A DNA stretch of 64,000 nucleotides from Melioribacter roseus (GCA_020723165.1 DYJK01000004.1:3270-67269), one strand, 5' to 3'. Numbered from the stretch's first letter, positions 6,359-22,857 are shown. Notes: generated from the letters alone by a model not told the origin. Translations and numbers: made by a program.

Positions 6359-6420
6359 CAATCGTCTTTGATTTTTGTTATTTCTCTTGTAACAATACAA
6401 AATATAACACTAAAATTAAC

Positions 6421-6460
6421 TTGACATTAGAAGTAAGAAAAATTAAGTTGTACCAACAAC
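6421..6460 (+). promoter_or_regulatory. candidate promoter (TTGACA) with inverted repeat GTTGT-N4-ACAAC, possible GntR operator
   Basis: TTGACA at 6421-6426. GTTGTACCAACAAC at 6447-6460 contains GT...AC half-sites, as in GntR/HutC-type operators. It lies in the gap between the divergent macro gene and the locus that contains the GntR gene. Confidence 0.3.
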
Positions 6461-6508
6461 CCATCAACTTAAAGAAATATTGTTATTTAAATCAATTTTG
6501 GAGAAAAA

Positions 6509-7513
6509 ATGCATAAAGTAGGACTTAGCAGAATCATTAATTACCTACTCGTCTTTGTTTTTCTGACCTCATTATTATATGCTCAGACAGATCTAAAGAT
6601 AGTTTCATTAGCTCCGAATTGGACAAATGCAGTTGCAGCATTAGGAGCCGCTGACCAACTTTGTGGTGTTACGAGATATTGCATTTTCCCGGATTCCATA
6701 CCGCGATTAGTCAAAGAAGGAAAATTAGAAATTGTAGGCGGTTTTGCAGATGTGAATTACTCCCGTATAAATGAAATCAAACCAGATCTTATACTAACTT
6801 GTACCGGGGTTCAAGCAAAAATAAGAGATAGATTTTTGAAAGAAGGTTATAAAGTTCTCCATATGGAAGAAACTAGTCTTACTGAAGTATATTCAAAAAT
6901 AGTTGAGTTGGGGAAAGCAATAGGAAAGGAAGAATCTGCTGATAAACTAGTTGAAGAAATCAAATGTAATCTTACAGATATTGCTGAAAAGTATAAAGAT
7001 TATCCACGCATAAGTGTTTACTACGAGATTAACTATTATTACAAATGTGTGCCCGGGAAAGACTCATATATATCTGAACTTTTGAAGATGGTGGGTGGAG
7101 AACCTATCTTTTCGGAAAGACCCGGAATAGCTCCATCTGTAACATGGGATGAAATAGTAAAAGCAAATCCAGACGTAATTTTAATTCCAATTTGGGATAA
7201 TGCTGGCGGTCCCTACTTCGAAGAAGAAAAAGTTGGATGGGGTACTACCACACCATATGAAATTGCACATAGAGAAGGTGCTTCAACTATCAATGCAGTT
7301 AAAAATGGCAGAGTTAGGTATATCAATTCTGCAAAGACAAAACAAGCCGGTCCGCAGATTCCTACTGCGGCTGATCTTTTTGGAAAAACTATCCACGCTG
7401 ATGGTGATCTGGAAATGTTAAAAATAGAAAAAGTACCGGATAGAATGGATGATGTTACGTTTTCAAAAATAATTCTTTATTTCCCTATGTATGCGTCGGT
7501 GTACAATAATTAA
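6509..7513 (+). CDS. periplasmic substrate-binding protein, BtuF/FhuD-like (class III, Peripla_BP_2-like)
   Basis: 334 aa. Signal peptide, then LKIVSLAPNWTNAVAALGAADQLCGVT...KPDLILTC...NPDVILIP, the pattern of cobalamin/siderophore-type binding proteins. Confidence 0.7.
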   Translation: MHKVGLSRIINYLLVFVFLTSLLYAQTDLKIVSLAPNWTNAVAALGAADQLCGVTRYCIFPDSIPRLVKEGKLEIVGGFADVNYSRINEIKPDLILTCTGVQAKIRDRFLKEGYKVLHMEETSLTEVYSKIVELGKAIGKEESADKLVEEIKCNLTDIAEKYKDYPRISVYYEINYYYKCVPGKDSYISELLKMVGGEPIFSERPGIAPSVTWDEIVKANPDVILIPIWDNAGGPYFEEEKVGWGTTTPYEIAHREGASTINAVKNGRVRYINSAKTKQAGPQIPTAADLFGKTIHADGDLEMLKIEKVPDRMDDVTFSKIILYFPMYASVYNN

Positions 7514-7555
7514 ATCTGGTTAATTTAGTTCATTGTTGAAAGATCGAGGTAATCA

Positions 7556-8320
7556 ATGGAAATAGACAAAAAGAGTGCACTTCCACTTTATTATCAACTT
7601 AAAGAAATTCTTAAAGAAGAAATAGATATTGGTAAGTATAAACCAAATGAAAAAATTCCTTCTGAAAATGAATTGGCTGAACTTCTAAAGATCAGCCGTA
7701 ATACAGCTAAACAAGCAATTGCAGATTTAGTTTCGGAAGGGATGCTCTATCGTGTACAAGGTAGGGGAACATTTGTTGCAGAGAGAAAAATATTCAAAGG
7801 TCTCACTGATGCGTACAGTTTTTCCTCCGAATTCCAGTACAATGGTTCGGCAATAAAAACGAAGGTTATCATATCAGAAGAAATTTTTGAGTCGAAGGAA
7901 GCACTTGAATATCTAAAAATGAAAGAAAGTACCGAGTTATATCGTGTTCAAAGATTAAGATTAATGAACAATCTGCCGGTTGCTCTGCAAACCTCTTATA
8001 TCCCGAAATTTTTCTGCCCCGATTTACTTTCTCATGATCTTTCAAGCAATTCATTATTTGACATCTTGAAGGAACATTACCAGCTCAACTTCGGCTATTT
8101 TACAGAAAACCTAACATGTGTAAAAGCCGATCAATATGAAGCAGATTTATTGAAGGTTAAAAAAGGATCACCGCTATTTCTTTTAACAAGAAAAACATTT
8201 ACAAAAAATGATGAAATAATCGAAGTGGTTCGCTCATTTTTACCGGGAGATAGATGTGAATTTTCTTTCACCCATGGTGCGGATATGAGTATAGAATTAA
8301 ATCATATTGCTGTTGGTTGA
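7556..8320 (+). CDS. GntR-family transcriptional regulator, HutC subfamily (wHTH + UTRA-like)
   Basis: PLYYQLKEILKEEIDIGKYKPNEKIPSENELAELLKISRNTAKQAIADLVSEGMLYRVQGRGTFV, followed by a C-terminal domain of about 170 aa. Confidence 0.85.
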   Translation: MEIDKKSALPLYYQLKEILKEEIDIGKYKPNEKIPSENELAELLKISRNTAKQAIADLVSEGMLYRVQGRGTFVAERKIFKGLTDAYSFSSEFQYNGSAIKTKVIISEEIFESKEALEYLKMKESTELYRVQRLRLMNNLPVALQTSYIPKFFCPDLLSHDLSSNSLFDILKEHYQLNFGYFTENLTCVKADQYEADLLKVKKGSPLFLLTRKTFTKNDEIIEVVRSFLPGDRCEFSFTHGADMSIELNHIAVG

Positions 8321-8323
8321 AAA

Positions 8324-8851
8324 ATGTCGACTATACCGATACCAAAAGAAGAATTTGATATTCACGATCAAAAAATTTTTTGGTCATCTAGACGTATTGC
8401 ACGAATGGCAATTTTTATTGCGATGTGTGCTGTTGGGTCAATGATTAAAGTTCCAAGTCCAACCGGAACAGTAGCACTCGATGCAGCGTTTGCATTTTTC
8501 TCGGCAATTGCATTTGGTTGGCGCGAAGGTGCTATTGTAGCGGCTCTTGGTCATATGTTAACAGCACTAACTACCGGTTTTCCGCTCGGCTTGCCGATGC
8601 ATTTGTTTATATCAATTCAAATGGCAGCATGGGTTACTATTTTTGATCTAACAGCAAAGAAAATTCATTTATGGTTTGGTGCTGTTCTGGCCGTAATCTT
8701 GAATGGACCTATTTCTTCATTGCTGGTAATACCTATTGGTGGATTTGGACTGTTTGCTGCATTGATTCTTCCACTAACTGTTGGTGGTTTTATCAATGTT
8801 TTTATTGCGTGTACTGCATACCTGATTATTCAAAAGAGTAGAATGGTGTAA
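8324..8851 (+). CDS. ECF-transporter substrate-capture (S) component, specificity unknown
   Basis: 175 aa with about 6 TM segments. It sits directly upstream of EcfA/EcfT genes. Its stop overlaps the next start (TAATG). Confidence 0.65.
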   Translation: MSTIPIPKEEFDIHDQKIFWSSRRIARMAIFIAMCAVGSMIKVPSPTGTVALDAAFAFFSAIAFGWREGAIVAALGHMLTALTTGFPLGLPMHLFISIQMAAWVTIFDLTAKKIHLWFGAVLAVILNGPISSLLVIPIGGFGLFAALILPLTVGGFINVFIACTAYLIIQKSRMV

Positions 8852-9666
8852 TGATGAATTTGAATTTGTTATACCAGAGATATCGGGAATTAAAAGAATC
8901 CAATACGAATTTGTTTAATACCAGGCATGTCCGCGATCTTTTAATTTCTGAATTGACTGATGATCTATGGATAGTGGTTAGTTCGGATTCAGATGGTGGT
9001 ATCGGTCCTAAGAAACATGACACAGTTTTTTCTCCAGCTTACGATCTTGGTAGGCTTGGAACAAGAGTAGCATTGATGGAAATGATGGCGTCAGGTGCTT
9101 TACCAATCATGGTAGTTGATGTTCTTTCGGTTGAGATGGAACCGACCGGTAAAGAGATTATTGAAGGTGTTAAAGATGAAGCAGAAGAAGCCGGGATGAA
9201 TCGTGATATTGTTATTACCGGCAGTACCGAGGATAATGTTGAAACAGTACAAACCGGGATGGGTGTTGTTATTATAGGATTAGTTCATAAAAATGATTTT
9301 AGACCCGGTAAAAGTTTGAATGGGGATATTGTTGTTGCGATAGGAAAACCTAAATCTGCACCGGAGTATAAAATAATTTTTAATGATAATGAAATCACTA
9401 ATACAAAGACAATCATTGAATTAAATCGATGTAAATTTATACACGATATTCTTCCAGTTGGTTCAAAAGGTATCCAGCATGAATTTTATGAGTTGGGAAA
9501 GAGTGCCGGACTTCTTCCACATTATTATAGTGTTAATGATATAGATGTAACAAAATCCGGCGGACCTTCAACAAGCTGCCTTATTTCTCTGCCTAAGAAT
9601 GAATTACAAAATCTTCAAAACAAAATAGATAAACCAATGTGCGTTATTGGTGAACTAAGAGGATAA
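8851..9666 (+). CDS. PurM/ThiL/HypE-superfamily (AIR-synthase-related) protein, putative small-molecule kinase
   Basis: 271 aa. WIVVSSDSDGGIGPKKHD...AYDLGRLGTRVALMEMMASGALPIMVVDVLSV...ITGSTEDNV resembles the N-terminal ATP/metal-binding domain of the PurM superfamily. Assignment made by eye only. Confidence 0.5.
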   Translation: MMNLNLLYQRYRELKESNTNLFNTRHVRDLLISELTDDLWIVVSSDSDGGIGPKKHDTVFSPAYDLGRLGTRVALMEMMASGALPIMVVDVLSVEMEPTGKEIIEGVKDEAEEAGMNRDIVITGSTEDNVETVQTGMGVVIIGLVHKNDFRPGKSLNGDIVVAIGKPKSAPEYKIIFNDNEITNTKTIIELNRCKFIHDILPVGSKGIQHEFYELGKSAGLLPHYYSVNDIDVTKSGGPSTSCLISLPKNELQNLQNKIDKPMCVIGELRG

Positions 9667-9667
9667 C

Positions 9668-11422
9668 TTGAATATAGAGGAATTGGAAAGAGGATCGGTT
9701 GTGGTAGATTTGGAAAAGTATACTTACCCCGGGAGTCCCAGTGCAACTCTTAAGAAAATTAATTTTAAAATTAATAAAGGCGAATTTATTGGAGTAATGG
9801 GTAGAACCGGTTCAGGAAAAACTACAACATTAATGCTTCTCAACGGTTTGATACCTCATTTTTTTGAAGGCAATTTTGACGGCTCTGTAATTGTTAATAC
9901 AATGAACACGCAAAGATATAGAGTACAAACACTTGCCCGGTTTATTGGATTAGTTATGCAAGATCCTGAAACTCAGATTTTTGGGATAACTGTTGAAAAA
10001 GATACTTCCTTTGGTCCCTCCAACCTTAATTACAGAAAAGAAAAAATTGAAGAGCTTGTTACAAAATCACTTCCATTAGTTGGACTAAGCGGATTTGAAA
10101 AAAGAATAACAACGGAATTATCAGGCGGCGAAAAACAACGTTTAGCAATTGCCGGTGTCTTAGCAATGGAACCGGAAATAATTGTGCTTGATGAACCAAC
10201 TTCGGAATTGGACCCGAACGGACGCGCTGAAATTTACCGGGTTCTTTCAGAAATCCGCAGAAAAGAAAACGTTACTGTGATTATATCCGGCCATGATTCC
10301 GAGGAGATGCTTGATTTCGTTGATAAGATTATTGTCCTTGATGAAGGCGAGGTCGTTTGGCAAGGTATACCCCACGATCTATTTAAGAATGTGTCGCTTA
10401 CAGAAAAGTATGGAATTAGGCCAATCGAAACAGCTGAAATTTCAAATGCACTTTGTAAAGATTCTGTGTCAAAAGAGACCGAAATATTTTTGCATAGCGG
10501 GCAGCTCATCGAATATCTAAACAAACAATTAAAAAGTTGTTCAACCAAAAACGAAATACATAAAGAAACTTTTATTCCAAAACAGAAAAAGACTGTAATT
10601 GAAACAATTGATCTTTCATTCGGATATCGGAAAAATGAAGCCGCTCTTAATAAAATTAATCTTAGAATTGGCAAAGGTGAATTTGTTGCAGTAATCGGAA
10701 AGAATGGTGCCGGTAAAACCACATTTTCAAAACATCTTAATGGATTATTGAGACCAACATCGGGTCAGGTACTGATAAATGGAAGAAACATTCAATCAGT
10801 TAGTACTTCTGAATTAAGCCGTGAAGTGGGATATGTTTTTCAAAATCCCGATCACCAGATTTTTTCTGCAAGTGTGAGAGAAGAAGTTGAGTATGGATTG
10901 AAAAATTTAAATCTAACAAAAGTTGAGATTGAAGAAAGGGTAAATAAAGTATTAAAATTTGTTGGATTAATAGAATATCAAAATCGGCATCCGTTTACAT
11001 TAGGTAAAGGGGAACGTCAGAAATTAGCTTTTGCTTCTATCCTTGTAATGGAACCGGGGATTTTAGTAATAGATGAACCTACTACGGGTCAGGATTGGGA
11101 TGGAACAAAAAGAATGATGACTATGATGAAAGAGTTACACCAAAACGGACATACAATATTGACCATAACTCATAATTTGAGATTAGCCGCCGAGTATGCC
11201 GATAGAATAATTGTGTTTTCAAATGGAATGGTAGTATTGGATGGAACACCCCCGGAGGTTTTTTCACAAGAGCAAATTCTTGAATCGGCTTCTGTTTCGT
11301 CTCCCGAAAGTGTAAAAATTGGAAGATCTCTTTTCGAGTTAGGTTTTAGAAACGACCTTATTACCGTGAATCAAATTAAAGAACAACTGTTGGAAAATTT
11401 GAGTTTGATAAATGTTAATTGA
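9668..11422 (+). CDS. ECF-transporter ATPase, fused EcfA-EcfA' (two ABC domains)
   Basis: 584 aa. Two Walker A motifs (GRTGSGKTT, GKNGAGKTT), two signature motifs (LSGGEKQR, LGKGERQK) and two Walker B motifs (VLDEPTSELD, VIDEPTTGQD). TTG start one nt after the previous stop. Confidence 0.9.
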   Translation: MNIEELERGSVVVDLEKYTYPGSPSATLKKINFKINKGEFIGVMGRTGSGKTTTLMLLNGLIPHFFEGNFDGSVIVNTMNTQRYRVQTLARFIGLVMQDPETQIFGITVEKDTSFGPSNLNYRKEKIEELVTKSLPLVGLSGFEKRITTELSGGEKQRLAIAGVLAMEPEIIVLDEPTSELDPNGRAEIYRVLSEIRRKENVTVIISGHDSEEMLDFVDKIIVLDEGEVVWQGIPHDLFKNVSLTEKYGIRPIETAEISNALCKDSVSKETEIFLHSGQLIEYLNKQLKSCSTKNEIHKETFIPKQKKTVIETIDLSFGYRKNEAALNKINLRIGKGEFVAVIGKNGAGKTTFSKHLNGLLRPTSGQVLINGRNIQSVSTSELSREVGYVFQNPDHQIFSASVREEVEYGLKNLNLTKVEIEERVNKVLKFVGLIEYQNRHPFTLGKGERQKLAFASILVMEPGILVIDEPTTGQDWDGTKRMMTMMKELHQNGHTILTITHNLRLAAEYADRIIVFSNGMVVLDGTPPEVFSQEQILESASVSSPESVKIGRSLFELGFRNDLITVNQIKEQLLENLSLINVN

Positions 11423-12221
11423 TTACTATCCATCAAATAGTTTTATTCATTCTCTTGATGTACGCACAAAGTTACTTGGTTTTTTAATAATAACCGTTGC
11501 AGCATTTGTATTTTTGTCGCCGTTTATCAACTTACTGATTGCAGCAATTACATTTCTAATACTTCTCACAATAAAAACGCCTCTTCATAAAATAAAACAA
11601 GTTCTAAAACCACTTCTTCCAATTTTTTTAATAATGCTTTTAATAACTGGTTTTACTTACCCGGCTGAAAAATTTCAACTCGATCTAAACAAGCAGATAC
11701 TTTTTTATTTATTCCCGGATAAAACTTTACCGATCTCGGTTGGTGGTATCTTTTATGGGTTAACATTAACTCTTAGGATTTTAATAATGGTTCTTGCATC
11801 AACGGTTGTAACATTCAGTACACCGATAGAAGATATTATTCAACTGATGCAAAAAATGAAAATGCCTTATCAACTGGCTTTTGTAATTGCAACCGGGATA
11901 AGATTCGTCCCGACAATGCAGAAAAAATCGGAGATGATCCAGGAAGCACAAAAAGCACGGGGTACCGAATTTGGAAACAAAGGATTAATTGGAAATATCA
12001 AATCGTATATCCCGGTACTTATTCCAATGATTGTTGATTCAATCCGCATGTCCGAAAATCTTGCTATCTCAATGTTAAACCGTGGATTTGGCACATACAA
12101 ATCAGCTACTAATCTGCACGAAATAAAAATGATGAAAAAAGATTACGCAATATGTTTAGCCGAGTTGATAATTCTAATAGCAGCAATCTGGGCGAATACC
12201 GAAAATGTTGGAGTTCTGTAA
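11412..12221 (+). CDS. ECF-transporter transmembrane (T) component, EcfT/CbiQ family
   Basis: 269 aa polytopic membrane protein. Overlaps the ATPase gene by 11 nt. General CbiQ-like layout including a ...AQKARG... segment. Confidence 0.75.
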   Translation: MLIDYYPSNSFIHSLDVRTKLLGFLIITVAAFVFLSPFINLLIAAITFLILLTIKTPLHKIKQVLKPLLPIFLIMLLITGFTYPAEKFQLDLNKQILFYLFPDKTLPISVGGIFYGLTLTLRILIMVLASTVVTFSTPIEDIIQLMQKMKMPYQLAFVIATGIRFVPTMQKKSEMIQEAQKARGTEFGNKGLIGNIKSYIPVLIPMIVDSIRMSENLAISMLNRGFGTYKSATNLHEIKMMKKDYAICLAELIILIAAIWANTENVGVL

Positions 12222-13264
12222 TGATAAAAGAAAATTCAATTTCACTAAAATCAATAGGGTTAGAAAAAGAGATCATCTTTAAAAAGGCGTTTGGGTCGCT
12301 TCTCGGTGTTGCATACGGAGATGCAATGGGTATGCCGACATCTTTGATGGATCCGGTTACAATAAGAAAAATGTTCCCGGAACGAATCACAAGTCTTTTG
12401 CCGGCACCGGAAGGTCATATCATTCATAATAAAATGTTAGCCGGCGAGATTACGGATGATACTCAACAAACACTGCTTCTTGCAGATCTGTTTATTGAAG
12501 AAAAGAAATTTACACGGCACGGTGTTGCGAAAAAATTACTTGAATGGGCAAAAGGTTTAAACGCTTTTCAATCAATGATACTAGGACCAAGCTCACTTCG
12601 CGCTTTAAAGATGATTGATAACGGAATCCCGGTTGAAGAAACCGGCAGTATGGGAGACACAAACGGTGCTGCAATGAAAATCGCACCGGTAGGAATTGTT
12701 CATCCCGGCGATTACGATGCAGTAGTAAATGATGTTGCAGAAGTTTGCATTCCCACACACAATACGAATATGGCAATTTCCGGGGCGTCTGCTGTCGCAT
12801 GTGCAGTAGCATCGGGTATGGCAAACAGAAACATGGATGATTTGATAGAAGCATTTTATTATGGGGCCAAAGAAGGGATGAAATTCGGAAGGCAATGGTA
12901 CGGGGCATCAATATCAAAAAGAACTGAGTTGGCGCTTAAAATTATCCGCTCGGGAAAAAGTGAAGCAGAGATATGGCAAGATTTATATGATTATGTAGGC
13001 ACCGGCGTTGCTATATCGGAATCTGTGCCTACAGCACTTGCATTAGTAGTTTATTACAATGGTAATCCTCTCAAAACCGCTGAAGCTGCTGCTAACATTG
13101 GCGGCGATTGCGATACTGTTGGTGCAATTGCCGGCGGTATTGCCGGTGCATATTCAGGGTATGAAATATTTCCTTCAAATATTATCGAACAGTTATCACG
13201 AGTGAACAAAATTGATTTTGAAGGGTATGCGAAAAAAATTTCTGATTCCGTATTAACGACATAA
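12221..13264 (+). CDS. ADP-ribosylglycohydrolase-family (DraG/ARH-like) protein
   Basis: Contains GSLLGVAYGDAMGMPTS, ITDDTQQT and GGDCDTVGAIAGGIAGAY motifs. Start placed at ATG 12221, which overlaps the ecfT stop (TAATG). The ORF-track start at 12152 lies inside ecfT. Confidence 0.8.
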   Translation: MIKENSISLKSIGLEKEIIFKKAFGSLLGVAYGDAMGMPTSLMDPVTIRKMFPERITSLLPAPEGHIIHNKMLAGEITDDTQQTLLLADLFIEEKKFTRHGVAKKLLEWAKGLNAFQSMILGPSSLRALKMIDNGIPVEETGSMGDTNGAAMKIAPVGIVHPGDYDAVVNDVAEVCIPTHNTNMAISGASAVACAVASGMANRNMDDLIEAFYYGAKEGMKFGRQWYGASISKRTELALKIIRSGKSEAEIWQDLYDYVGTGVAISESVPTALALVVYYNGNPLKTAEAAANIGGDCDTVGAIAGGIAGAYSGYEIFPSNIIEQLSRVNKIDFEGYAKKISDSVLTT

Positions 13265-13340
13265 AAACAAATTCATGAAAGGAAAGAATTAAAATTTTTA
13301 GATAGAACATTTATTTATTAAAGATTACCTGGGTACGGGT

Positions 13341-14984
13341 ATGATCAAAATGATTTGTAGAATAGTTTTCGTGGCATCTGTTTTAATTCAATCAATCTTT
13401 TCCCAAACGTTAAGTGATTCAACTTCTCCCAAAATAAATATTCCCCCCAGCTCAAAACAAACATTATATGGACGTATTACAGATGTGCACGGTAAACCGG
13501 TTATTGCTCAAATACAAGCCTGGTATTACCCGTTAAAAGAAGTTGTATTTGCTTTTGGAAAAGATACAGTCAAAGGGAGAACCGATAATTTAATTTGTAT
13601 GGCATACTCTGAAAACAATGGATATTATGCAATCAAAGTACCGGTTGATACTATAACATTGATAATTACTAAAGGACCGGAATGGAGTATTGCCGAGGAG
13701 AGATTTGTAATAAGAAAAAATGAGTTTGAAGGGATTGAATATAATGTTACTCTGAAAAAATTATACGATTTAAGTAAGCAAGGTTGGTATTCGGGGGATG
13801 CACACCATCACAGTCTGCACAGCGATGGAAGACAAACTCCATCCCGGGTTGCACATGCAATGAAAGGTGTAGGATTATCATGGGGAATTTTATCCGATCA
13901 TAATTCCGTAGCTGGTAATAAAGAATGGATAGCTAATACTACTGAAAATTTTATTGCTATACCCGGATGTGAAATTACAACAGAGCCTTCAAGAAATTCA
14001 GAACTCAACGGATACGGTCATTTAAACCAAAGTTTCATTAATGAAATGAACACAACCTATCCCGATAATCCGAATATTTGGGCACGAGCTATATTCAGTA
14101 ATCATAAAGATGTTCAGACTGTAATCGATGGAACTCACGAACAAAAAGGATTCATTTCTATTAATCACCCGTATCAAAGCTGGGATTGGTCGGGCAGATA
14201 TAAATCCTGGGGTGAAGTAAAATATTTTGATGCAATCGAAGTGTGGAATGGTGATCCGCCTCATTCCTTATCAACAAATACATGGGCTAAAGAACCTTTT
14301 AATATTAACACGTGGGCTTTGCATTCGTGGTTCTCTTATTTGGATGAAGGAAATAAAATTTCGGGGATAGCCGGTTCTGATTGCCATGATATTTATGGTG
14401 CCGGGTCTTATCCTAAAGGAGAGTTTTACTGGACCACCACTACCGGTAATCCGCGAACCTATATCTATTGTAAGAAACTCTCAGAAAAAAATATTCAAGA
14501 TGCGCTTGAAGATGGAAAAATATTTCTTACATCAGGATTTGGTCCACTGTTATTGATTAGTTCGGAAGGCAAAACACCCGGTGAAATTATAAATGTGCCG
14601 GAAAATGGAGTTGTTGAAATTAAGATTGAAGTGTTGGCAAATAGACCTCTTAAGAAGATGCAAAATGGTGTAAGGGTAATTATTAATGGGGAAGCATTAT
14701 ACTGTTTCGATACGGATTCTGTATTCACTTTTGCGAGAGTGCAGCCGGTTAAAATTGAAAAAGATAGCTGGGTAATTGTAGAAGCATTTGGTCAATGGCC
14801 GATGTATGCTGTTACCAATCCAATTTATCTGGATTACCCTCCTTACGGAAATTTTCCAAGTAGGGAATGGAAAAATCCGGCTGGTTCGAGAGAATGGAAT
14901 ATATATTTAAGTCATCCTCAAATTACGATTCCTGATGGTGTATCAAATTGGAAGGAAAAAATAGATAAAACAAAAAATAAATAA
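13341..14984 (+). CDS. secreted PHP-domain metallophosphoesterase (CehA/McbA-like)
   Basis: 547 aa. Signal peptide, then a carboxypeptidase-regulatory-like beta domain (YGRITDVHGKPV). His-rich PHP motifs GDAHHHSLHSDG, LSDHN and GSDCHD. Confidence 0.65.
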   Translation: MIKMICRIVFVASVLIQSIFSQTLSDSTSPKINIPPSSKQTLYGRITDVHGKPVIAQIQAWYYPLKEVVFAFGKDTVKGRTDNLICMAYSENNGYYAIKVPVDTITLIITKGPEWSIAEERFVIRKNEFEGIEYNVTLKKLYDLSKQGWYSGDAHHHSLHSDGRQTPSRVAHAMKGVGLSWGILSDHNSVAGNKEWIANTTENFIAIPGCEITTEPSRNSELNGYGHLNQSFINEMNTTYPDNPNIWARAIFSNHKDVQTVIDGTHEQKGFISINHPYQSWDWSGRYKSWGEVKYFDAIEVWNGDPPHSLSTNTWAKEPFNINTWALHSWFSYLDEGNKISGIAGSDCHDIYGAGSYPKGEFYWTTTTGNPRTYIYCKKLSEKNIQDALEDGKIFLTSGFGPLLLISSEGKTPGEIINVPENGVVEIKIEVLANRPLKKMQNGVRVIINGEALYCFDTDSVFTFARVQPVKIEKDSWVIVEAFGQWPMYAVTNPIYLDYPPYGNFPSREWKNPAGSREWNIYLSHPQITIPDGVSNWKEKIDKTKNK

Positions 14985-15031
14985 TTGTGCTACGGATGCT
15001 GATTTATCCAATTAACAAAAGGAGGATGAAA

Positions 15032-16909
15032 ATGAAAAAGCTATTCAGCATTTTATCATTATTACTGATTCTTATTATTTCTACAAGTCTAACATTTGCC
15101 CAGGATGAGGGAAAAGAAAAAACTAATGAAAAAATAGTTTCTACCAAAGAATTATCCGACAAAACAAATGCAGAGGATATGGCAGAAGCTTTAAAAACTA
15201 TTCCTGGTGTTTACATCCGCTCCGGTCAAATTAATATTAGGGATGCAACTGCGAACAAAATTCTAATATTAATTGACGGGCAGAGAGTTAATAACGCACA
15301 AAGCGGAGGATACGATGTAACAACCATTCCAATCGATGCCGTTGAAAATGTTGAAGTGTTAAGAGGTGGTAACTCAGCCCGCTATGGTGCCGATGCTGTT
15401 GGAGGCGTTGTGAATTTCATTACTAAGAAAGCTAAAGAAGTTTCTAAAATGGATGTTGGATTAAGGGCAACTTATGGGTCTTTTAATTCCCAATATTACA
15501 GCGTTTACACCTCCAATACGGTAAGCGATTTCAACTATTACCTTTCTTACAAACGAAGACAGAGCGATGGTGATTTCAAGTACAAAGATTTTGATGGTGT
15601 AGACCAGACAAGAGAGAATAATCATTCTAAAGGGGATGATTTCCTTGTAAAATTGGGTTACAAACTTCAAGAAAATTCGAACCTTTCATTTACCGGTCAA
15701 TTAGGTCAATCCGAAAATGGTTCAGCCGGTAGTGTAAAAGGATTAAAGAATTATGCAAGTACAACACCAAACGCAATTCTGAAAACTAATAATTCGTTTT
15801 TTAATCTTAGCTACGGTATAAAAGAGATATACGGCAAAGCTGATTTAAATGCTAACAGTTACTATCAATTTTTCAGAACACGGTATAACGATCCTGATAC
15901 ATGGGGCGGACCTACCGCAAGTGATCATAAAGTAAATGCATATGGATTCGAGGTTACACAAAATAATCCTATGATGGATTTACTTACTTTGGTATATGGA
16001 TATGCATATCGCCATGATAACGCCAACAGCACATCGATTGGTGATAAGAATCGTAATACACATAGCGGACACCTTTCAGCAAATCTCGGTTTTAAGGATA
16101 TCGGTTTTTATTTGAACAATATTTCAATTATACCGGCTGTTCGTTATGATGCACCGTCAGATTTTGATAAAGTGTTAAGTCCAAAGATCAGTTTTATTTT
16201 TGCCAGCACAGATGCCTACGCTTTCAACATTAACGTACATTGGAGCAGATCATACAGAGCACCGACATTTAATGATTTATTCTGGCCTGAAGATTCTTAT
16301 ACAGTTGGTAACCCGGATCTGAAACCAGAGTATGGCAGAACTATTGAAGCCGGTTGTGGGGTGACATTACCTTCCATTAATGTAACGTTAAGGTTAAATT
16401 ATTTTAATAGTAAAATGACCGATCAGATTATTTGGGCTCCGAGGGCATCAGATTTTAAATGGACTCCCACAAATGTTGACAACTCACTAACTAGCGGACT
16501 TGAATCCTATGTTGGTATAAAATTCTTCGAGGATAAATTAAAGTTCGAGATTAACCATACCTATATGGATGCACGGGATAAAAGCGGTAAGACCAATGAT
16601 AATAAATTGCTCATCTATCGCCCGTATCACAAATTAGATTTTAACACCGCTGTTACAATAGACATTTTTGAAGTAAATGTTAACTATCAGTTTCTGAGTG
16701 ATCGTTACGTAGATGCAAAAAATTCTGCCGTTTTACCGGATGTCAGCAAGTGGGATCTTAATATTGGCACAAGTCCAAAATTATTTGATCTGAACTGGAC
16801 AGTCAGAATTGATGTAAATAATGTGTTTAATAAAAACTACCGGTTGAATGACGGTTATCCTTTGCCGGGAAGAGAAATACGCGGAACGATTGGGTTGAGT
16901 CTACTCTAA
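15032..16909 (+). CDS. TonB-dependent receptor (BtuB-sized)
   Basis: Signal peptide MKKLFSILSLLLILIISTSLTFAQ. Plug motifs IDGQRVNNAQSGGYD and VEVLRGGNSARYGADAVGGVVNFITK. C-terminal barrel with NNVFNKNYRL. Start chosen 6 nt after AGGAGG. Confidence 0.85.
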   Translation: MKKLFSILSLLLILIISTSLTFAQDEGKEKTNEKIVSTKELSDKTNAEDMAEALKTIPGVYIRSGQINIRDATANKILILIDGQRVNNAQSGGYDVTTIPIDAVENVEVLRGGNSARYGADAVGGVVNFITKKAKEVSKMDVGLRATYGSFNSQYYSVYTSNTVSDFNYYLSYKRRQSDGDFKYKDFDGVDQTRENNHSKGDDFLVKLGYKLQENSNLSFTGQLGQSENGSAGSVKGLKNYASTTPNAILKTNNSFFNLSYGIKEIYGKADLNANSYYQFFRTRYNDPDTWGGPTASDHKVNAYGFEVTQNNPMMDLLTLVYGYAYRHDNANSTSIGDKNRNTHSGHLSANLGFKDIGFYLNNISIIPAVRYDAPSDFDKVLSPKISFIFASTDAYAFNINVHWSRSYRAPTFNDLFWPEDSYTVGNPDLKPEYGRTIEAGCGVTLPSINVTLRLNYFNSKMTDQIIWAPRASDFKWTPTNVDNSLTSGLESYVGIKFFEDKLKFEINHTYMDARDKSGKTNDNKLLIYRPYHKLDFNTAVTIDIFEVNVNYQFLSDRYVDAKNSAVLPDVSKWDLNIGTSPKLFDLNWTVRIDVNNVFNKNYRLNDGYPLPGREIRGTIGLSLL

Positions 16910-16930
16910 TACTGGTGCATATACACAACT

Positions 16931-16988: not shown

Positions 16989-17037
16989 ATTAGGTTAATT
17001 ACGTTTCATTTATCAAAAAGAAATTGAGGATGATGTA

Positions 17038-19257
17038 ATGATGACCGGATCAATAAAAATAATATTGTTATTTCTTTCCATCTTGTTAATCATACCGTTG
17101 AAAGCCCAGGACTTCGGTACAGTGAGCGGTAATGTGAAAGATGAGAAAACAAGAGAGGCGCTTATAGGTGTTAATGTCTATTTGAAAGGAACACATATAG
17201 GAAGTGCAACAGATGTAAATGGTAATTACTTTATAAAACAAGTGCCGGCTGGCAAATGGATTTTAGTTTGCAGCATGCTTAACTACATTAAGGTTGAAAA
17301 AGAAATTGAGGTAAACAATAATCAAAATCTTACTATTGATTTTAGTCTTATCAATGACGAGCTAACTTTTTCCGAAGTAGTAATAACTGCAACACGTAAT
17401 GCAGAACTTGTAACCAATGTACCGGTAGCCACGGAAATTCTAAACAGTAAAGAAATTATAAACTCTAACGCTAAAAACGTTGGAGAAATTTTAAAATCAA
17501 TCGGTTCATCATTAATAAAAAGTTATGGTGCCGTAGGATCGCTGGAATCTGTTTCGTTGAGAGGTTCTACAAGTGATCAAGTTCTCATTTTAGTTGATGG
17601 CCAAAGACTAAACAACGCACAGCAAGGTTCGGTTGATTTAAGTTCGATTTCACTTGATGCTGTTGAAAAGATCGAAGTTGTTAAAGGCGGTAACTCGGCT
17701 ATGTACGGCAGCGATGCAGTTGGTGGAGTAATTAATGTTATTACAAAATCAATGGCGCGGAAAGATAAATTGGATTATTCTGTGAATGCTTTGTATGGAT
17801 CTTACAATACTCAAACTTATGATATTTCAGTTGGTCAAGGGATAAAGAATTTTGATTACTTTGTTTCATATAACAAAACACTTACCGACGGTAATTTTGA
17901 ATTCATTAATAAATTAGGCGAAAAAACAGAATTGAAGAACGGTGATACAAAAGCCGATAACATTTTTGTAAAAGGAGGTTACTTATTCGAAAATCAATCC
18001 AGGTTATCAGCATTTTACAAGTATCGTAAATCCGATAATGGTTCACCCGGTTCTATCGATTATCCTAATTACTCAGCCCGAAATAAAGTTGATAATAATC
18101 ATCTAAGTCTTTCCTACGAAGGATTATCATTTGGACCTTTTGCATTTAATTTTAATACCTATTTTATGCAGCGTGAACACCATTATGTAAATCCTGAATC
18201 TTACTTGGGAGCCGAAGAAAGTATATATGATACAAAAGCAATAGGTGTAATGCTGCAAGCATTTACAGACTTGAATGAATACGGACTTCTTTCTTACGGT
18301 TATGAACTCCGTCAAGACAAACTTGAAAGTGATCATTTACTAGACGGGGTAAGTCAGCCATTTATTGGCGATCATCAGCGAAATGTAAACAGTTTTTATT
18401 TTCAGAATGATTGGAAATATGATATTGATCATGTGTGGAAATTTTCAATAGTGCCGGCGATAAGAGTAGATAAATACCCGGAGAAAGGAATCGGTACCCA
18501 GCTTTCACCAAAAGCCGGTTTTACATTTAGTCACGATGAAATATGGCGCGGCGCAATTAGGGGTAATGTTGGTAAAGTTTTTAGAGCACCAACTTACAGC
18601 GATTTGTATTGGCCTGAAGATACGTGGACAAAAGGAAATCCGGATTTAAAACCGGAGAAGGGAATTACCTATGATTTTGGTTTCATCGTTCAGTTTGCCG
18701 GACCCGGTAGCTGGAGTATTGAATCAACATATTTTGGCAGTAACCTTGAAGATTTAATACTTTGGGCATCTTCAGAATCAGGTAAATGGACACCGACAAA
18801 TGTATCAAAGGCAAAAATCAATGGAGTAGAATTAAAAGTTTCGTGGGAAGGATTCAACAAACTTCTTGAAATCCATTCATCATATACTTACATGAAAGCT
18901 AAGGATGATAGCGATAATCCAACCACATCCGGGAAAGATTTGATTTACAGACCGAAAGATAAATTTGATTTGATCTTGAATTTTAATTACTGGATTGCAT
19001 CATTAAATCTTAACTACAATTTTATCGGCAAAAGATTTCATGATTCAACAAATAAAATTGAATTAAGCAGTTACGAATTAGTTAATGTTAACCTTGGTGT
19101 ATCACCAAAGGTCGGCGATGTTAATCTTAATTTCCGTTTCGAAGTAAATAATTTATTCGACAAACAATTACAAATTATAAAAGGATCGCCGGTCCCGGGT
19201 AGAGAATTAAGATTTTCAATAGGTGTTAATGGATCAATAACGGGAATAGAGTTATAG
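17038..19257 (+). CDS. TonB-dependent receptor with N-terminal carboxypeptidase-regulatory-like domain
   Basis: 739 aa. GTVSGNVKDEKTREALIGVNVYLKGT...NGNYFIKQVPAGKW, then plug motifs VDGQRLNNAQQGSVD and IEVVKGGNSAMYGSDAVGGVINVITK, then a barrel. Confidence 0.85.
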   Translation: MMTGSIKIILLFLSILLIIPLKAQDFGTVSGNVKDEKTREALIGVNVYLKGTHIGSATDVNGNYFIKQVPAGKWILVCSMLNYIKVEKEIEVNNNQNLTIDFSLINDELTFSEVVITATRNAELVTNVPVATEILNSKEIINSNAKNVGEILKSIGSSLIKSYGAVGSLESVSLRGSTSDQVLILVDGQRLNNAQQGSVDLSSISLDAVEKIEVVKGGNSAMYGSDAVGGVINVITKSMARKDKLDYSVNALYGSYNTQTYDISVGQGIKNFDYFVSYNKTLTDGNFEFINKLGEKTELKNGDTKADNIFVKGGYLFENQSRLSAFYKYRKSDNGSPGSIDYPNYSARNKVDNNHLSLSYEGLSFGPFAFNFNTYFMQREHHYVNPESYLGAEESIYDTKAIGVMLQAFTDLNEYGLLSYGYELRQDKLESDHLLDGVSQPFIGDHQRNVNSFYFQNDWKYDIDHVWKFSIVPAIRVDKYPEKGIGTQLSPKAGFTFSHDEIWRGAIRGNVGKVFRAPTYSDLYWPEDTWTKGNPDLKPEKGITYDFGFIVQFAGPGSWSIESTYFGSNLEDLILWASSESGKWTPTNVSKAKINGVELKVSWEGFNKLLEIHSSYTYMKAKDDSDNPTTSGKDLIYRPKDKFDLILNFNYWIASLNLNYNFIGKRFHDSTNKIELSSYELVNVNLGVSPKVGDVNLNFRFEVNNLFDKQLQIIKGSPVPGRELRFSIGVNGSITGIEL

Positions 19258-19292
19258 TTTTATCTAAATGCGGATTTTATTGGAGACATAAT

Positions 19293-20498
19293 ATGAGTAA
19301 ACAATATTTTGTCAGGGATATTGGTTTGGCTTCGAAGGGGGAGATACAAATTAAATGGGTCTCTAAGTGGATGCCGGTATTGAATAATCTTTATAAAAAA
19401 TTCAACGCTACCGGTGCGTTTAAAAATAAGAAAGTTGCTCTTTGCATTCATCTTGAAGCTAAAACAGCTTATTTAGCTTTAACGATTAAAAAATTAGGTG
19501 CCGAAGTTTGGGTGACAAGCAGTAATCCTCTCTCCACAAAAGATGAGGTAGCAGCAGCACTTGCAAAAAGAGGTGTGCATGTTTATGCAAGACATGCGGC
19601 GCCACACGATGAATATCTATCGTACATTGATACAATTCTAAAAAATAAAATGGATGTAACTGTTGATGATGGCGGAGACATATGTGAATATTTACATAAA
19701 AATCAGAAGTACGGTGTTAATATCAAAGGTATATGCGAAGAAACGACAACCGGTGTGAATCGCTTAAAAGAACTTGAGAAAAAGGGTAAACTTATTTATC
19801 CGTCAATTGCAGTCAATGATGCAAAATCCAAACATCTTTTTGATAATCGTTATGGAACGGGCCAATCTACCTGGACTGCAATTACCCAGCTAACAAACAT
19901 GAATGTTGCCGGCAAGTGTGTTGTTGTGGTTGGTTATGGCTGGGTTGGCAGAGGTGTTGCTGCGCGTGCACAAGGATTGGGTGCAAATGTTATTGTGACT
20001 GAAATTGATCCGTGGAAAGCGCTTGAAGCAAGCATGGATGGTTTCAGAGTTATGCCCGCTATAGATGCAGCACCCAAAGGTGATTTTTTTATCACAACAA
20101 CGGGTCAAAGCAAAGTAATCAGAATTGAACATATGAAAAAAATGAAGAATGGTGCTTTCCTTTCTAATGCCGGGCATTTTGATTATGAAATTGATATTCC
20201 GGCACTCAAAAAGTCAGCTAAAAAATGCGAAGTTGTAAGGGATGAAATCGAAGAATATCTTTTGCCAAATGGGAAAATGATTTATATTCTTGCGCGTGGA
20301 GGAATAATAAATATTGCCGGCGGTTTAGGCCATCCGGCAGATATTATGGATATGTCTTTCTCGGTTCAATTAGGTTGTCTTCATCATTTTCTATCTTCAA
20401 AGAAGATGCTTCCTAAACTTTACAAAGTCCCGGAAGAAATTGATCGCCTGGTTACTGTAGAAAAACTAAGAGTTGAAGGTGTAACAATTGATAGATAA
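19293..20498 (+). CDS. ahcY: adenosylhomocysteinase, short (archaeal/Thermotoga-like) form
   Basis: 401 aa. Contains HLEAKTAYLALTIKKLGAEV, DDGGD, EETTTGV and an NAD-binding VVVVGYGWVGRGVAARAQGLGANVIVTEIDP segment. Confidence 0.85.
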   Translation: MSKQYFVRDIGLASKGEIQIKWVSKWMPVLNNLYKKFNATGAFKNKKVALCIHLEAKTAYLALTIKKLGAEVWVTSSNPLSTKDEVAAALAKRGVHVYARHAAPHDEYLSYIDTILKNKMDVTVDDGGDICEYLHKNQKYGVNIKGICEETTTGVNRLKELEKKGKLIYPSIAVNDAKSKHLFDNRYGTGQSTWTAITQLTNMNVAGKCVVVVGYGWVGRGVAARAQGLGANVIVTEIDPWKALEASMDGFRVMPAIDAAPKGDFFITTTGQSKVIRIEHMKKMKNGAFLSNAGHFDYEIDIPALKKSAKKCEVVRDEIEEYLLPNGKMIYILARGGIINIAGGLGHPADIMDMSFSVQLGCLHHFLSSKKMLPKLYKVPEEIDRLVTVEKLRVEGVTIDR

Positions 20499-20514: not shown

Positions 20515-21825
20515 ATGGATATATCTAGAATAATAAACTTTTTTGGAATCCCGGTATTACTTTTATTTGCCTGGCTGTTATCATCCAATCGCAAGGTCGT
20601 TAACTGGCGCGTGATTATATGGGGACTAATTATAGAATTAGTTTTAGCATTGTTCATATTTGTAATTCCAATTGGTACTAAATTTTTTCTGATTGTTAAT
20701 GACGTTGTGAACAGTATTCTTGATAGTGCTACATACGGAACAGTGTTTGTGTTTGGACCCCTGGCTTTATCACCGGGTAAAACATTACCTACCGGCGAGA
20801 CTTCAATTGGTTTTATATTAGCGTTTCAGGCATTGGCTACAATTATATTTTTTGCGGTGCTGGTTGGTCTTTTATATTATTATGGAATTATGAGCAAGGT
20901 GATCCAATTCTTCTCGCTTGTTTTTACAAAGTTGATGAAGATAAGCGGCGCGGAATCACTCTGTGCATCTTCCAACATTTTTGTCGGCGTCGAATCAGGC
21001 CTGGTAGTTAAACCGTACCTAGGTAAAATGACAAAATCTGAGTTGAATACGATACTTACTGCCGGTATGGCAACAATTGCATCAAGTATGCTTGCAGTCT
21101 ACATATTAATTTTAAGAAATGAATTCCCAAATATTGCCGGGCATCTTGTTTCAGCAAGTCTTATGAATGCGCCGGCTGCTATAATCATTTCTAAAATTCT
21201 TTTACCGGAAGAAGAAACACCGGTTACTCTCGGTAAAAATGTTAAACCTTTATATGAAAAGGAGAGCAGTTTTTTTGAATCTATTATTAATAATGCAAAT
21301 TCAGGCGTTAAGTTGATCGTTGGAATCAGTGCATTATTGCTGGCAGTATTGGGATTGATGTCCTTGCTCGATAAAATTTTAGTATTTCTTGGAGGAGAGA
21401 TTAACAATTTGTTCTCGTTAAATATTGATTGGACACTGAAAGGTTTGTTAGGCTATTTATTTTACCCGGTAACTTTCATAATAGGAATCCCGGCGAGTGA
21501 TGTTGCTTCTATTTCCAAAATTATCGGTGAAAGGTTGGTGCTTACCGAAATCCCGGCATTTAAAGATTTATCTGTTCTTATGGCAAGCGGAAGTTTATCT
21601 TCAATGCGGAGTGCTGTTATGACAACTTACGCATTAACCGGATTTGCGCACGTTGCTTCGATTGCAATTTTTGTTGGTGGTTTTACAGCATTAGCTCCGG
21701 AAAGAATTAAAGATTTTGCCAAATTGGGATTCCGTGCTTTAATAGGTGCAACACTTGCTAATCTGGTTACATCTACAATTGCCGGCTTATTCTATACTAA
21801 TGGAACAATATTGTTGGGCAATTAA
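20515..21825 (+). CDS. concentrative nucleoside transporter, NupC/CNT family
   Basis: 436 aa polytopic protein. N-terminal FGIPVLLLFAWLLSSNRKVVNWRVIIWGL and overall CNT-like layout. Confidence 0.75.
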   Translation: MDISRIINFFGIPVLLLFAWLLSSNRKVVNWRVIIWGLIIELVLALFIFVIPIGTKFFLIVNDVVNSILDSATYGTVFVFGPLALSPGKTLPTGETSIGFILAFQALATIIFFAVLVGLLYYYGIMSKVIQFFSLVFTKLMKISGAESLCASSNIFVGVESGLVVKPYLGKMTKSELNTILTAGMATIASSMLAVYILILRNEFPNIAGHLVSASLMNAPAAIIISKILLPEEETPVTLGKNVKPLYEKESSFFESIINNANSGVKLIVGISALLLAVLGLMSLLDKILVFLGGEINNLFSLNIDWTLKGLLGYLFYPVTFIIGIPASDVASISKIIGERLVLTEIPAFKDLSVLMASGSLSSMRSAVMTTYALTGFAHVASIAIFVGGFTALAPERIKDFAKLGFRALIGATLANLVTSTIAGLFYTNGTILLGN

Positions 21826-22857
21826 ATGCTTGCTTATCAAGATATACCGCATATTATAAAAAAAATGCCCAAAGTAGAAATCCATCTTCACTTAGAAGGT
21901 GCTTTCACATTTGATTTTCTTTTTGACCTGGTAAATAAATACGGCGGCGATCCTGAAATAAAAAATATAGACGATTTGCGTAAAAAGTTTGTGTTTTCTG
22001 ATTTCTCTCATTTTATAAATACGTGGTTTTGGAAAAATAAATTTTACCGTAAACCGGAAGATTTTGAAAATTCTACATATCAAACGTTAAAAAATTTGTC
22101 TCTGCAAAATGTTATTTACGCCGAAGTTTTTTTTTCGCCGTGGGATTTTGCGCCGAATAATTTAAGGATGGAAGAAATTGCTGAAGCTACGATATCCGGG
22201 ATCCGAAAAGCTGAAAACGATTTCCCGATTAAATGCGGATTGATAGCTGATATTGTTCGTGACCATGGTGCTGAAGGAGCGATAGAAAGATTACAACACA
22301 CAACTCCCTTCCTCGGAAGAGGAATAATAGGTATAGGATTGGGGGGGAATGAAAAAGATTTTCCTCCAATCTTTTTTAAAGATGTTTTTCATGAAGCAAA
22401 AAGAATAGGATTTAGAACTACTATCCATGCCGGCGAGGCATCCGGACCAGAATCAATTTGGTCGGCAATAAATGATCTTGAAGCGGAAAGGATTGGACAT
22501 GGTGTCAGGGCAGTTGAAGATCCGAAGCTCGTTGATTATCTATATTCAAAGCAAATTCCTCTCGAAGTTTGTATTACAAGTAATTTGAAGACTAGAGTAT
22601 TTCAGTCGCTTCATGAACACCCATTTGATGATTTTTATAAAAAGGGATTGATGGTAACCGTCAATTCCGATGATCCACCGATGTTCGGTTCGGACATTAC
22701 CGATGAATTTTTTCTTCTCTATGATAAGTTAAAATATAACTACGACGATTTAAAACAAATTACACTTAATGCTCTAAATTCCAGTTTCCTAGGTGAGAGT
22801 GAGAAGAAAAAATATCATGATATAATTACAAAGTACTGGGCTGCTATCAAACAATAA
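21826..22857 (+). CDS. add: adenosine deaminase-family amidohydrolase
   Basis: 343 aa. Metal-ligand motifs PKVEIHLHLEGA, TIHAGE, RIGHG and NSDDP. Starts immediately after the nupC stop. Confidence 0.85.
   Translation: MLAYQDIPHIIKKMPKVEIHLHLEGAFTFDFLFDLVNKYGGDPEIKNIDDLRKKFVFSDFSHFINTWFWKNKFYRKPEDFENSTYQTLKNLSLQNVIYAEVFFSPWDFAPNNLRMEEIAEATISGIRKAENDFPIKCGLIADIVRDHGAEGAIERLQHTTPFLGRGIIGIGLGGNEKDFPPIFFKDVFHEAKRIGFRTTIHAGEASGPESIWSAINDLEAERIGHGVRAVEDPKLVDYLYSKQIPLEVCITSNLKTRVFQSLHEHPFDDFYKKGLMVTVNSDDPPMFGSDITDEFFLLYDKLKYNYDDLKQITLNALNSSFLGESEKKKYHDIITKYWAAIKQ

Follow-up and report, generated by a model that had tools for sequence, protein, structure and literature searches.

In the pathways of pseudouridine (YeiC/YeiN) and of queuosine (the queuosine-5'-phosphate glycosylase Qng1), a non-canonical nucleoside is phosphorylated and the monophosphate is then converted to ribose-5-phosphate and a base. 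The known ARH-family enzymes (ARH1, ARH3, and DraG) cleave alpha-anomeric ribosyl bonds. CblS has been described as the alpha-ribazole kinase (PMC6461909), and the operon on the plasmid pMF1298-5 has been named CblT, CblS, CobS, and CobC (PMC6722938). In Escherichia coli, the HutC/GntR repressor of yegW-yegTUV has been documented and the function of these genes was still unknown in 2024-2025 (PMC10819704; bioRxiv 10.1101/2024.07.01.601547). The only YegW effector reported in PMC10819704 is ADP-glucose. In Salmonella STM4065-67, the aminoimidazole riboside (AIRs) kinase STM4066 and the putative ARH protein STM4067 are encoded in one operon, and the YegU/STM4067 hydrolases affect gut persistence (PMC3161100); the kinase activity of STM4066 is given here as cited in that paper. 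The present analysis concerns a stretch of 64,000 nucleotides (nt) from Melioribacter roseus (GCA_020723165.1 DYJK01000004.1:3270-67269), called the window. It contains an operon for a HutC/GntR regulator, an energy-coupling factor (ECF) importer, a CblS-like putative riboside kinase, and an ARH-family glycohydrolase. The operon is real, widely conserved, and uncharacterised, and the importer, kinase, and hydrolase probably handle an unusual riboside.

Related loci were collected by a scan that took one genome per species. It yielded 134 relatives, and 80 loci were kept, with eight or more phyla represented. The number of informative loci differs by gene (70, 72, 73, and 68). An ARH gene lies within 4.5 kb downstream of the kinase gene in 67 of 70 informative loci, and 59 of 72 have a HutC/GntR regulator gene ahead of the kinase gene. 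The S component (40/73) and the ECF ATPase (39/68) are present in only about 55%. Thus, the conserved core consists of the HutC/GntR regulator, the CblS-like kinase, and the YegU-like hydrolase, and the importer is interchangeable. The original prediction had described two enzymes coupled into an ECF importer; the coupling at the gene junctions stands, but the importer is not the frame of the module. Co-localisation of the four gene types, on which that prediction had staked its reading, recurs in the same order in 32 independent loci. Among the 32 are loci from Ignavibacteriota, Calditrichota, many Bacillota, and cultured species of Bacillus and Brevibacillus. Together with the kinase/ARH pair in 67 of 70 loci, this shows that the gene arrangement is not due to chance.

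The kinase-ARH pair spans Ignavibacteriota, Marinimicrobia, Calditrichota, Bacillota, Acidobacteriota, Rubrobacter, and others. Where the ECF genes are missing, TonB receptors, concentrative nucleoside transporters (CNT), or Bmp-ABC nucleoside transporters are found instead. In the Marinimicrobia-type loci, the ARH gene directly follows the kinase gene. Their operon also encodes a secreted calcineurin-like phosphoesterase, the regulator, two TonB receptors, a beta-propeller lipoprotein, and a binding protein, and further an S-adenosylhomocysteine (SAH) hydrolase, a CNT, and an adenosine deaminase. In Rubrobacter, genes for an IU-nucleoside hydrolase and a Bmp/PnrA nucleoside ABC transporter come after the pair, and the acidobacterial loci include several IU-nucleoside hydrolase genes. 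The Bacillota versions consist of regulator, ECF, kinase, and ARH only. The context of the module is therefore nucleoside uptake and breakdown.

The 271-amino-acid (aa) kinase-like protein was modelled with AlphaFold2 from 52 homologues, and the model had a mean predicted local distance difference test (pLDDT) of 95 and a predicted template modelling (pTM) score of 0.92. When the model was compared with the PDB by Foldseek, SelD, PurL, ThiL, HypE, and PurM were all matched with a probability of 1.00 and query-normalised template modelling scores (TMq) of 0.57-0.69. The best match was the selenophosphate synthetase SelD (3u0o, E 1e-14, TMq 0.69). The Pfam AIRS N-domain was detected at 34 bits (cut-off 24), and no C-domain was detected by Pfam. 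The predicted model and its Foldseek matches confirm the two-domain PurM-superfamily fold that had been proposed for this protein. Among the 52 aligned homologues, 40 columns are invariant. The family is compact, with 466 representatives at E<=1e-3 among 1.84 billion proteins. A sequence search of the PDB gave no useful match for the kinase, the S component, or the PHP-type hydrolase of the operon. NCBIfam contains no model for the S component, and none of its models matched the kinase or the ARH above cut-off.

Genes in the CblS position of annotated cob operons, found by tblastn of plasmid records, served as CblS references. The best match was on L. plantarum pMF1298-5, where the gene is flanked by that of an ECF S component on one side and by cobS and a histidine phosphatase gene on the other. 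Another was in Listeria monocytogenes, between pduV and cobU-cobS-cobC, and this gene is presumably lin1110/CblS. The third was in Cytobacillus, after cbiZ-cobU-cobS-cobA and an S component. The window kinase is 32% identical to the pMF1298-5 protein (E 6e-36) and 30% identical to the Listeria protein (E 2e-32), nearly full length in both cases. The motifs DSxxGIGxK, GSTEDN, and LPVGSKG are common to the kinase and the CblS-position proteins. The S component is 32% identical to the CblT of pMF1298-5 (E 4e-18), and CblT queries matched S genes in 42 sequences from the related loci and the window. Judged from these alignments, the pair of S component and kinase is homologous to CblT/CblS, as the original prediction had suspected from the likeness of the two gene pairs. 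It had also placed CblS, subject to a check, in the AIR-synthase-related superfamily. Since the PurM-fold kinase is 30-32% identical to the CblS-position proteins, CblS is confirmed by transitivity as a PurM-fold protein as well.

The pair is not an ordinary CblTS system. In a neighbour-joining tree, a distance tree without support values, the three cob-context CblS proteins fall outside a clade of 78 module proteins and the window protein. Identities are 25-37% between the cob-context and module groups and 34-97% inside the module clade. Queries with CobU, CobS, CobC, and CobA gave no match in the window or in any of the 80 related loci. The lack of a recognisable cobalamin riboswitch upstream, remarked on in the original prediction, held in the scans made here. 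No riboswitch of any kind appeared upstream of the module, either at gathering thresholds or over 6250-8400 at E<=1, and no cobalamin riboswitch was found in the window or in the 22 related loci scanned. The same scan detected one in the Listeria cob locus, which served as a positive control. It is the tree placement, together with the absence of cob genes and of a cobalamin riboswitch, that separates the pair from CblTS.

Three kinases of the same clade, from Salipaludibacillus and Brevibacillus laterosporus (L061:10001-10738, L068:9923-10753, and L077:9914-10753), stand alone, without S component, ECF, ARH, or cob genes. They lie next to either a Toprim-domain gene or a methyltransferase gene. 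These standalone Bacillaceae/Brevibacillus homologues were considered as true CblS proteins, and this was rejected, as they have neither cob genes nor a B12 riboswitch. The 466-member family set also holds CblS-like fusion proteins (P0152, P0165, P0250, P0222, and P0145). Three have an N-terminal CopG-type ribbon-helix-helix domain and, because of this domain, are possible riboside-sensing regulators. One carries a precorrin-2 dehydrogenase-type NAD_binding_7 domain and one is merged with an ABC ATPase. A kinase-ARH fusion, which would be Rosetta-stone evidence, was looked for among these fusions and none was found.

The ARH protein matches Pfam PF03747 over profile positions 1-286 of 287 (213 bits, cut-off 26.2). 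It is 35% identical to E. coli YegU over 323 aa, the full length (E 9e-65). The YegU query matched 68 sequences from the related loci and the window, with identities up to 43%, and the module ARH of Bacillus is itself 43% identical to YegU. Among relatives with solved structures, the uncharacterised MJ1187 is the closest (E 3e-27), and DraG and ARH3 are distant. Scores against the NCBIfam equivalogs are far below the cut-offs for DraG (69.6 bits, cut-off 337) and Tri1 (58.9 bits, cut-off 490). The di-metal ligands, whose loss would have counted against a functional ARH, are all kept. T78-D79-D80-T81, D296, and D298 are invariant in an alignment of 64 homologues, and T299 is present in 63/64. 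N148-G-A-x-M and H180 are also invariant, T179 is kept in 63/64, and position 153 is R or K in 63/64. In Bacillus litorisediminis, two more ARH genes (703 and 391 aa) follow the module at a distance of 2.5 kb (L053:16820-20107, minus strand), so that three ARH paralogues occur in one 7-kb stretch.

The E. coli yegW-yegTUV genes encode a HutC-family repressor, an NHS nucleoside permease (YegT), YegU, and a PfkB kinase (YegV). Queries with YegV and YegT by tblastn gave no match in the window or in the 80 related loci. In the module loci, a PurM-fold kinase stands in for YegV, and an ECF, CNT, or Bmp-ABC importer stands in for YegT. This is a case of non-orthologous displacement, in which the hydrolase stays the same and the kinase is exchanged. 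Since one ARH family is repeatedly teamed with differing kinase families, the kinase and the ARH appear to act in sequence on one riboside, and this is the strongest argument for such a pathway.

The features of the operon are listed in Table 1. All domain calls and the four gene junctions that had been described before were borne out by the ORF list, by reading the junctions directly, and by Pfam. The stop codon of the S component overlaps the start of the kinase gene (TAATG at 8849-8853). The kinase gene is separated from EcfAA' by one base (TAA-c-TTG at 9664-9670); EcfAA' starts with TTG at 9668 and is preceded by the Shine-Dalgarno-like stretch AAGAGGA. EcfAA' and EcfT overlap by 11 nt (11412-11422), and the EcfT stop overlaps the ARH start (TAATG at 12219-12223) with GGAG before it. 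In addition, the GntR stop lies only 3 nt before the S-component start (8320/8324), which had gone unmentioned. In the relatives, the estimated median gene gaps are 0-14 nt and about half of the loci have gaps of <=5 nt, with start codons that are themselves estimated. Stoichiometric co-expression, which had been drawn from the overlaps, is an over-reading, as half of the relatives do not have such overlaps.

Table 1. Features of the kinase-ARH operon and its predicted operator (positions in the window).
Feature	Position	Strand	Evidence
Palindrome GTTGTACCAACAAC, candidate HutC/GntR operator	6447..6460	.	Conserved position; function inferred
Periplasmic binding protein (Peripla_BP_2, BtuF/TroA-like), signal peptide	6509..7513	+	Pfam 102 bits
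GntR/HutC-family regulator (winged helix-turn-helix + UTRA effector domain)	7556..8320	+	Pfam GntR 66.6, UTRA 116 bits
ECF S component, CblT-like	8324..8851	+	Pfam ECF_trnsprt PF12822, 46 bits
PurM-superfamily CblS-like putative riboside kinase, 271 aa	8851..9666	+	Pfam AIRS N-domain, fold, CblS homology
Fused EcfA-EcfA' ATPase (EcfAA'), 584 aa	9668..11422	+	2x ABC_tran PF00005
EcfT transmembrane component	11412..12221	+	Pfam CbiQ PF02361, 112 bits
ARH-family glycohydrolase, YegU subfamily	12221..13264	+	Pfam ADP_ribosyl_GH 213 bits
Secreted PHP-type (CehA/McbA) metallohydrolase, putative periplasmic phosphoesterase	13341..14984	+	NCBIfam NF038032, 188 bits
TonB-dependent receptor 1	14987..16909	+	Plug + barrel domains
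TonB-dependent receptor 2, CarboxypepD_reg N-domain	17038..19257	+	Domain matches
S-adenosylhomocysteine (SAH) hydrolase	19293..20498	+	NCBIfam NF004005, 551 bits (cut-off 275)
NupC-type concentrative nucleoside transporter (CNT)	20515..21825	+	Family match
Adenosine deaminase	21826..22857	+	TIGR01430, 293 bits (cut-off 217)

The five module genes are as the original prediction described them, but the unit to which they belong is larger. The kinase module lies among 13 co-directional genes that span 6509-22857. Upstream of the ARH gene, the gaps are 42 nt (binding protein to GntR) and 3 nt, followed by overlaps or a single base. From the ARH gene onward they lie within 0-129 nt (76, 2, 128, 35, 16, and 0 nt). 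The ECF transporter is of the dedicated (group I) type, with the S component, the T component, and two ATPase domains encoded next to each other on one strand. EcfAA' scored 481 bits against ECF_ATPase_1 and 491 bits against ECF_ATPase_2 of NCBIfam. The EcfT translation holds the X-R-X motifs ARG (QKARGTEF) and NRG (MLNRGFG), which may correspond to the coupling helices by analogy. The closest database proteins come from Melioribacteraceae and other metagenome-assembled genomes of Ignavibacteriota.

The regulator is 25% identical to E. coli YegW/GgaR. The palindrome GTTGTACCAACAAC lies 49 nt before the first operon gene and is the sole exact copy in the window. In 19 related loci of three phyla, a single exact GTTGT-N4-ACAAC lies shortly before the first operon gene, and about 8 further loci have a copy with one mismatch at the equivalent place. 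The gene behind the palindrome encodes the binding protein in Ignavibacteriota and Calditrichota and the metallophosphoesterase in Marinimicrobia. From its position and conservation, we regard the palindrome as the HutC operator. Because it stands before the gene for the binding protein or phosphoesterase, that protein would belong to the same regulon as the module.

The other envelope genes were compared in the same manner. The binding protein scored 65.7 bits against the NCBIfam BtuF model (cut-off 234), its best PDB relatives are 4m7o and BtuF (E about 1e-13), and its conservation extends to 23 related loci. The operon provides no FecCD-type permease or ATPase to go with it, and the diderm host carries the ECF importer and the CNT instead. 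A signal peptide is visible in the translation of the PHP hydrolase, whose gene occurs in 10 related loci. In 20 other loci (18 Marinimicrobia-type and 2 Calditrichaceae), it is replaced by a secreted calcineurin-like phosphoesterase. Thus, an extracytoplasmic phosphoesterase is conserved in role and not in family. The best NCBIfam match of both TonB receptors is BtuB-type, at 148 bits for receptor 1, far below the cut-off, and at 220 bits for receptor 2, also below it. Both receptors occur together in 30 related loci. The linkage of the SAH hydrolase to the module is kept in Ignavibacteriota and Marinimicrobia despite rearrangements. In 13 Marinimicrobia-type loci, a YncE-like beta-propeller lipoprotein is encoded between TonB receptor 2 and the binding protein or SAH hydrolase (for example L030, L038, L039, L043, L049 at 9887-10906, L050, L055, L058, L067, L071, and L076). 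It has a marginal DUF5074 match below the cut-off, and the gene does not occur in the window.

These components can be arranged into a substrate-inducible scavenging system, in which a riboside is imported, phosphorylated by the kinase, and cleaved by the ARH to ribose-5-phosphate and an aglycone. This reading is coherent, and we lean towards it, though only modestly. The two TonB receptors would capture the substrate or a phosphoester precursor at the outer membrane. The secreted PHP phosphoesterase could trim it in the periplasm, where the BtuF-like protein may hold the product. The riboside would be imported by the dedicated CblT-like ECF transporter, and an ordinary nucleoside part by the NupC-type CNT. 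The CblS-family kinase would then use ATP to phosphorylate the ribose, presumably at the 5'-OH. Finally, the ARH would hydrolyse the C1' ribosyl bond and release ribose-5-phosphate and the free aglycone. The phosphorylated intermediate probably relieves the HutC repressor at GTTGTACCAACAAC.

Gene order, folds, homologies, conserved catalytic motifs, co-localisation, and the conserved palindrome are observations. The sequence of the two reactions, the 5'-OH site, what the palindrome and the envelope proteins do, and which riboside is handled are inferences. The substrate is probably a non-canonical riboside, and an alpha linkage is plausible and a good guess. The idea of an alpha-riboside is attractive because alpha-ribazole is the substrate of the one characterised relative of the kinase and the known ARH enzymes cleave alpha-anomeric bonds. 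An extracytoplasmic phosphoesterase is kept even though its family differs by phylum, which suggests that a phosphoester is trimmed outside the cell and the product phosphorylated again inside. The high-affinity uptake parts (TonB receptors and ECF) suggest a scarce compound instead of a bulk carbon source.

Several observations weigh against the proposed scheme. Where ARH3, DraG, MJ1187, and YegU have the catalytic Glu (after GDAxGxP), the window ARH has Ser41; of the 64 aligned sequences, 51 have Ser here, 9 Glu, 3 Ala, and 1 Gln. The substrates for which the ARH family is best known are ADP-ribosyl compounds and not simple phosphoribosides, and we know of no enzyme assay for any member of the kinase clade or for YegU. 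The order of the kinase and ARH reactions could be reversed. The linkage of SAH hydrolase and adenosine deaminase goes beyond a simple riboside model. Scans for sigma-70 promoters and terminators came out at or below the shuffled expectation and were left unused, and because they were uninformative, the limits of the 13-gene operon were drawn from gene spacing.

The substrate can be narrowed by considering what else the genes could do. Cobamide-derived alpha-ribosides and ribosyl remnants derived from NAD or ADP-ribose are the two most concrete candidates, and neither explains every gene. If the module were an orthologous CblT-CblS salvage system, CobS would receive alpha-ribazole-5'-phosphate from it for the assembly of cobamides, and the ARH would be a passenger. 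The homology of the S component and kinase to CblT and CblS speaks for this, as do the TonB receptors and binding protein, whose best named relatives are BtuB and BtuF, albeit far below the cut-offs. However, no CobU/CobS/CobC/CobA match was found in the 80 loci or the window, the cobalamin riboswitch was absent from the window and 22 loci although the Listeria control was positive, the cob-context CblS proteins lie outside the clade (25-37% vs 34-97% identity), and a HutC-type repressor governs the module. The ARH is linked in 96% of loci and hence is no passenger, and hydrolysis of alpha-ribazole phosphate would defeat salvage. Salvage of this kind is quite improbable. Another possibility is a recycling of cobamides. 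The periplasmic phosphoesterase would cut the nucleotide loop, and the freed lower-ligand alpha-riboside would be imported, phosphorylated, and split to base and ribose-5-phosphate. Candidate ligands are alpha-ribazole or the adeninyl alpha-riboside of pseudocobalamin, and the adenosine genes might relate to adeninyl ligands. The resemblance of the S component and kinase to CblT and CblS fits, and so do the sub-threshold BtuB-like, BtuF-like, and beta-propeller components, the high-affinity TonB receptors and ECF that suit trace compounds, and the action of ARH1, ARH3, and DraG on alpha-anomeric ribosyl bonds. For the release of alpha-ribazole by a phosphodiesterase, CbiR is a precedent (PMC7733943). 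Against it, every B12-type similarity is below family thresholds, the operon is without BtuCD, nearby cob genes, or a B12 riboswitch, the Bacillota loci have only regulator, ECF, kinase, and ARH, and the SAH hydrolase is left unaccounted for. Cobamide recycling is thus conceivable but doubtful.

Scavenging of NAD/ADP-ribose conjugates accommodates other genes of the operon. Here, the periplasmic phosphoesterase would split the pyrophosphate and the phosphates and so yield adenosine, handled by the CNT and the deaminase, and a ribosyl-X that is imported, phosphorylated again, and hydrolysed by the ARH. The adenosine deaminase, the CNT, and the conserved extracytoplasmic phosphoesterase fit this scheme. 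So does a kinase ahead of an ARH with intact phosphate-binding motifs, which would recognise a 5-phosphoribosyl-X, and a macro-domain gene adjoins the operon in the nearest relatives. Yet L001 and L002 are the only loci to keep that gene, the module lacks an NAD-type regulator, these conjugates are environmentally scarce, and the relatives of the kinase and S component belong to the alpha-ribazole system and not to nicotinamide riboside/NAD salvage. This substrate is unlikely. Finally, the ARH could be a DraG-like regulator that removes ADP-ribose from a protein, such as the transporter ATPase, outside any metabolic pathway. Its PF03747 membership and weak NCBIfam matches to DraG and Tri1 point in this direction; the DraG score is 70 bits against a cut-off of 337, the protein is much closer to YegU, no ADP-ribosyltransferase partner was found in any locus, and the gene persists in loci without an ECF transporter. 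A regulatory role of this kind is barely credible.

Other features of the window were noted. A macro-domain protein (5858-6400, minus strand; O-acetyl-ADP-ribose deacetylase equivalog, 232 bits) is encoded divergently from the ARH operon. Of the related loci, only the two closest, L001 and L002, keep it there, so that it is probably outside the module. A fluoride riboswitch (RF01734, 49.7 bits; 1854-1914, minus strand) lies directly upstream of the genes for a CrcB channel and a DUF190 protein (1454-1825 and 1097-1453, both minus strand), and these form an ordinary fluoride-resistance unit. A 2106-aa repeat protein (50506-56826) contains ten SdrD_B domains, CarboxypepD_reg, and Laminin_G_3. 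Like it, a 776-aa protein (36911-39241) has a type IX secretion C-terminal sorting domain. Housekeeping genes include the suf Fe-S cluster operon (29737-34805), BamA (60003-62126), and a fused malic enzyme-phosphotransacetylase-domain protein of the MaeB type (57007-59259).

The module links two uncharacterised families, a sister clade of CblS and the YegU/STM4067 ARH proteins, in one two-enzyme unit that occurs from marine Marinimicrobia to soil Bacilli. The association of one hydrolase with non-homologous kinases and importers leads to a testable pathway, from riboside to riboside-5'-phosphate to base and ribose-5-phosphate. The predicted operator would be a direct handle for finding the inducer. 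A search of the accessible literature returned no published link of ARH enzymes to ECF transporters or to alpha-ribazole metabolism. It can be suggested, with more doubt than conviction, that the kinase-ARH pair is the first dedicated pathway that takes alpha-linked ribosides, namely the lower-ligand nucleosides of cobamides, from capture by vitamin-grade uptake machinery to free base and ribose-5-phosphate. If so, E. coli YegU and the Salmonella STM4067 family would gain a function, and a BtuF-like binding protein would work with an ECF or CNT importer in diderms. If the substrate were a cobamide-derived alpha-riboside, the pathway would be a missing step in the lower-ligand cycling of microbial communities.

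The module can be compared with four kinds of known systems. The YeiC/YeiN and Qng1 pathways resemble it in the proposed logic of a kinase followed by a glycosidase; their enzyme families are unrelated to those of the module, and the comparison implies no homology. DraG, ARH1, and ARH3 have the Pfam family and the di-metal site in common with the window ARH, but they are distant (E 1e-12 to 1e-7), and the context in the window is metabolic, not regulatory. The yegW-yegTUV genes, like the window module, combine a HutC/GntR repressor, a nucleoside-type importer, an ARH hydrolase, and a kinase, and the hydrolases of the two are orthologue-like. Their kinase is PfkB-type in place of PurM-type, their transporter belongs to the major facilitator superfamily (NHS) and not to ECF, and YegU retains the Glu where most module ARH proteins have Ser. 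The CblT-CblS systems of Listeria innocua, Geobacillus kaustophilus, and pMF1298-5 likewise have an S component followed by a PurM-fold protein of ~250-270 aa. However, they sit in cob operons beside cobU, cobS, and cobC, and the window module does not. They are embedded in the B12 regulon, without an ARH and without an adjoining dedicated EcfAA'T, whereas the window module has both, is controlled by a HutC repressor, and is almost always paired with an ARH. Riboside pathways built of transporter, kinase, and glycosidase and the CblTS pair are known kinds, and the module ties the YegU family to a defined partner and context.

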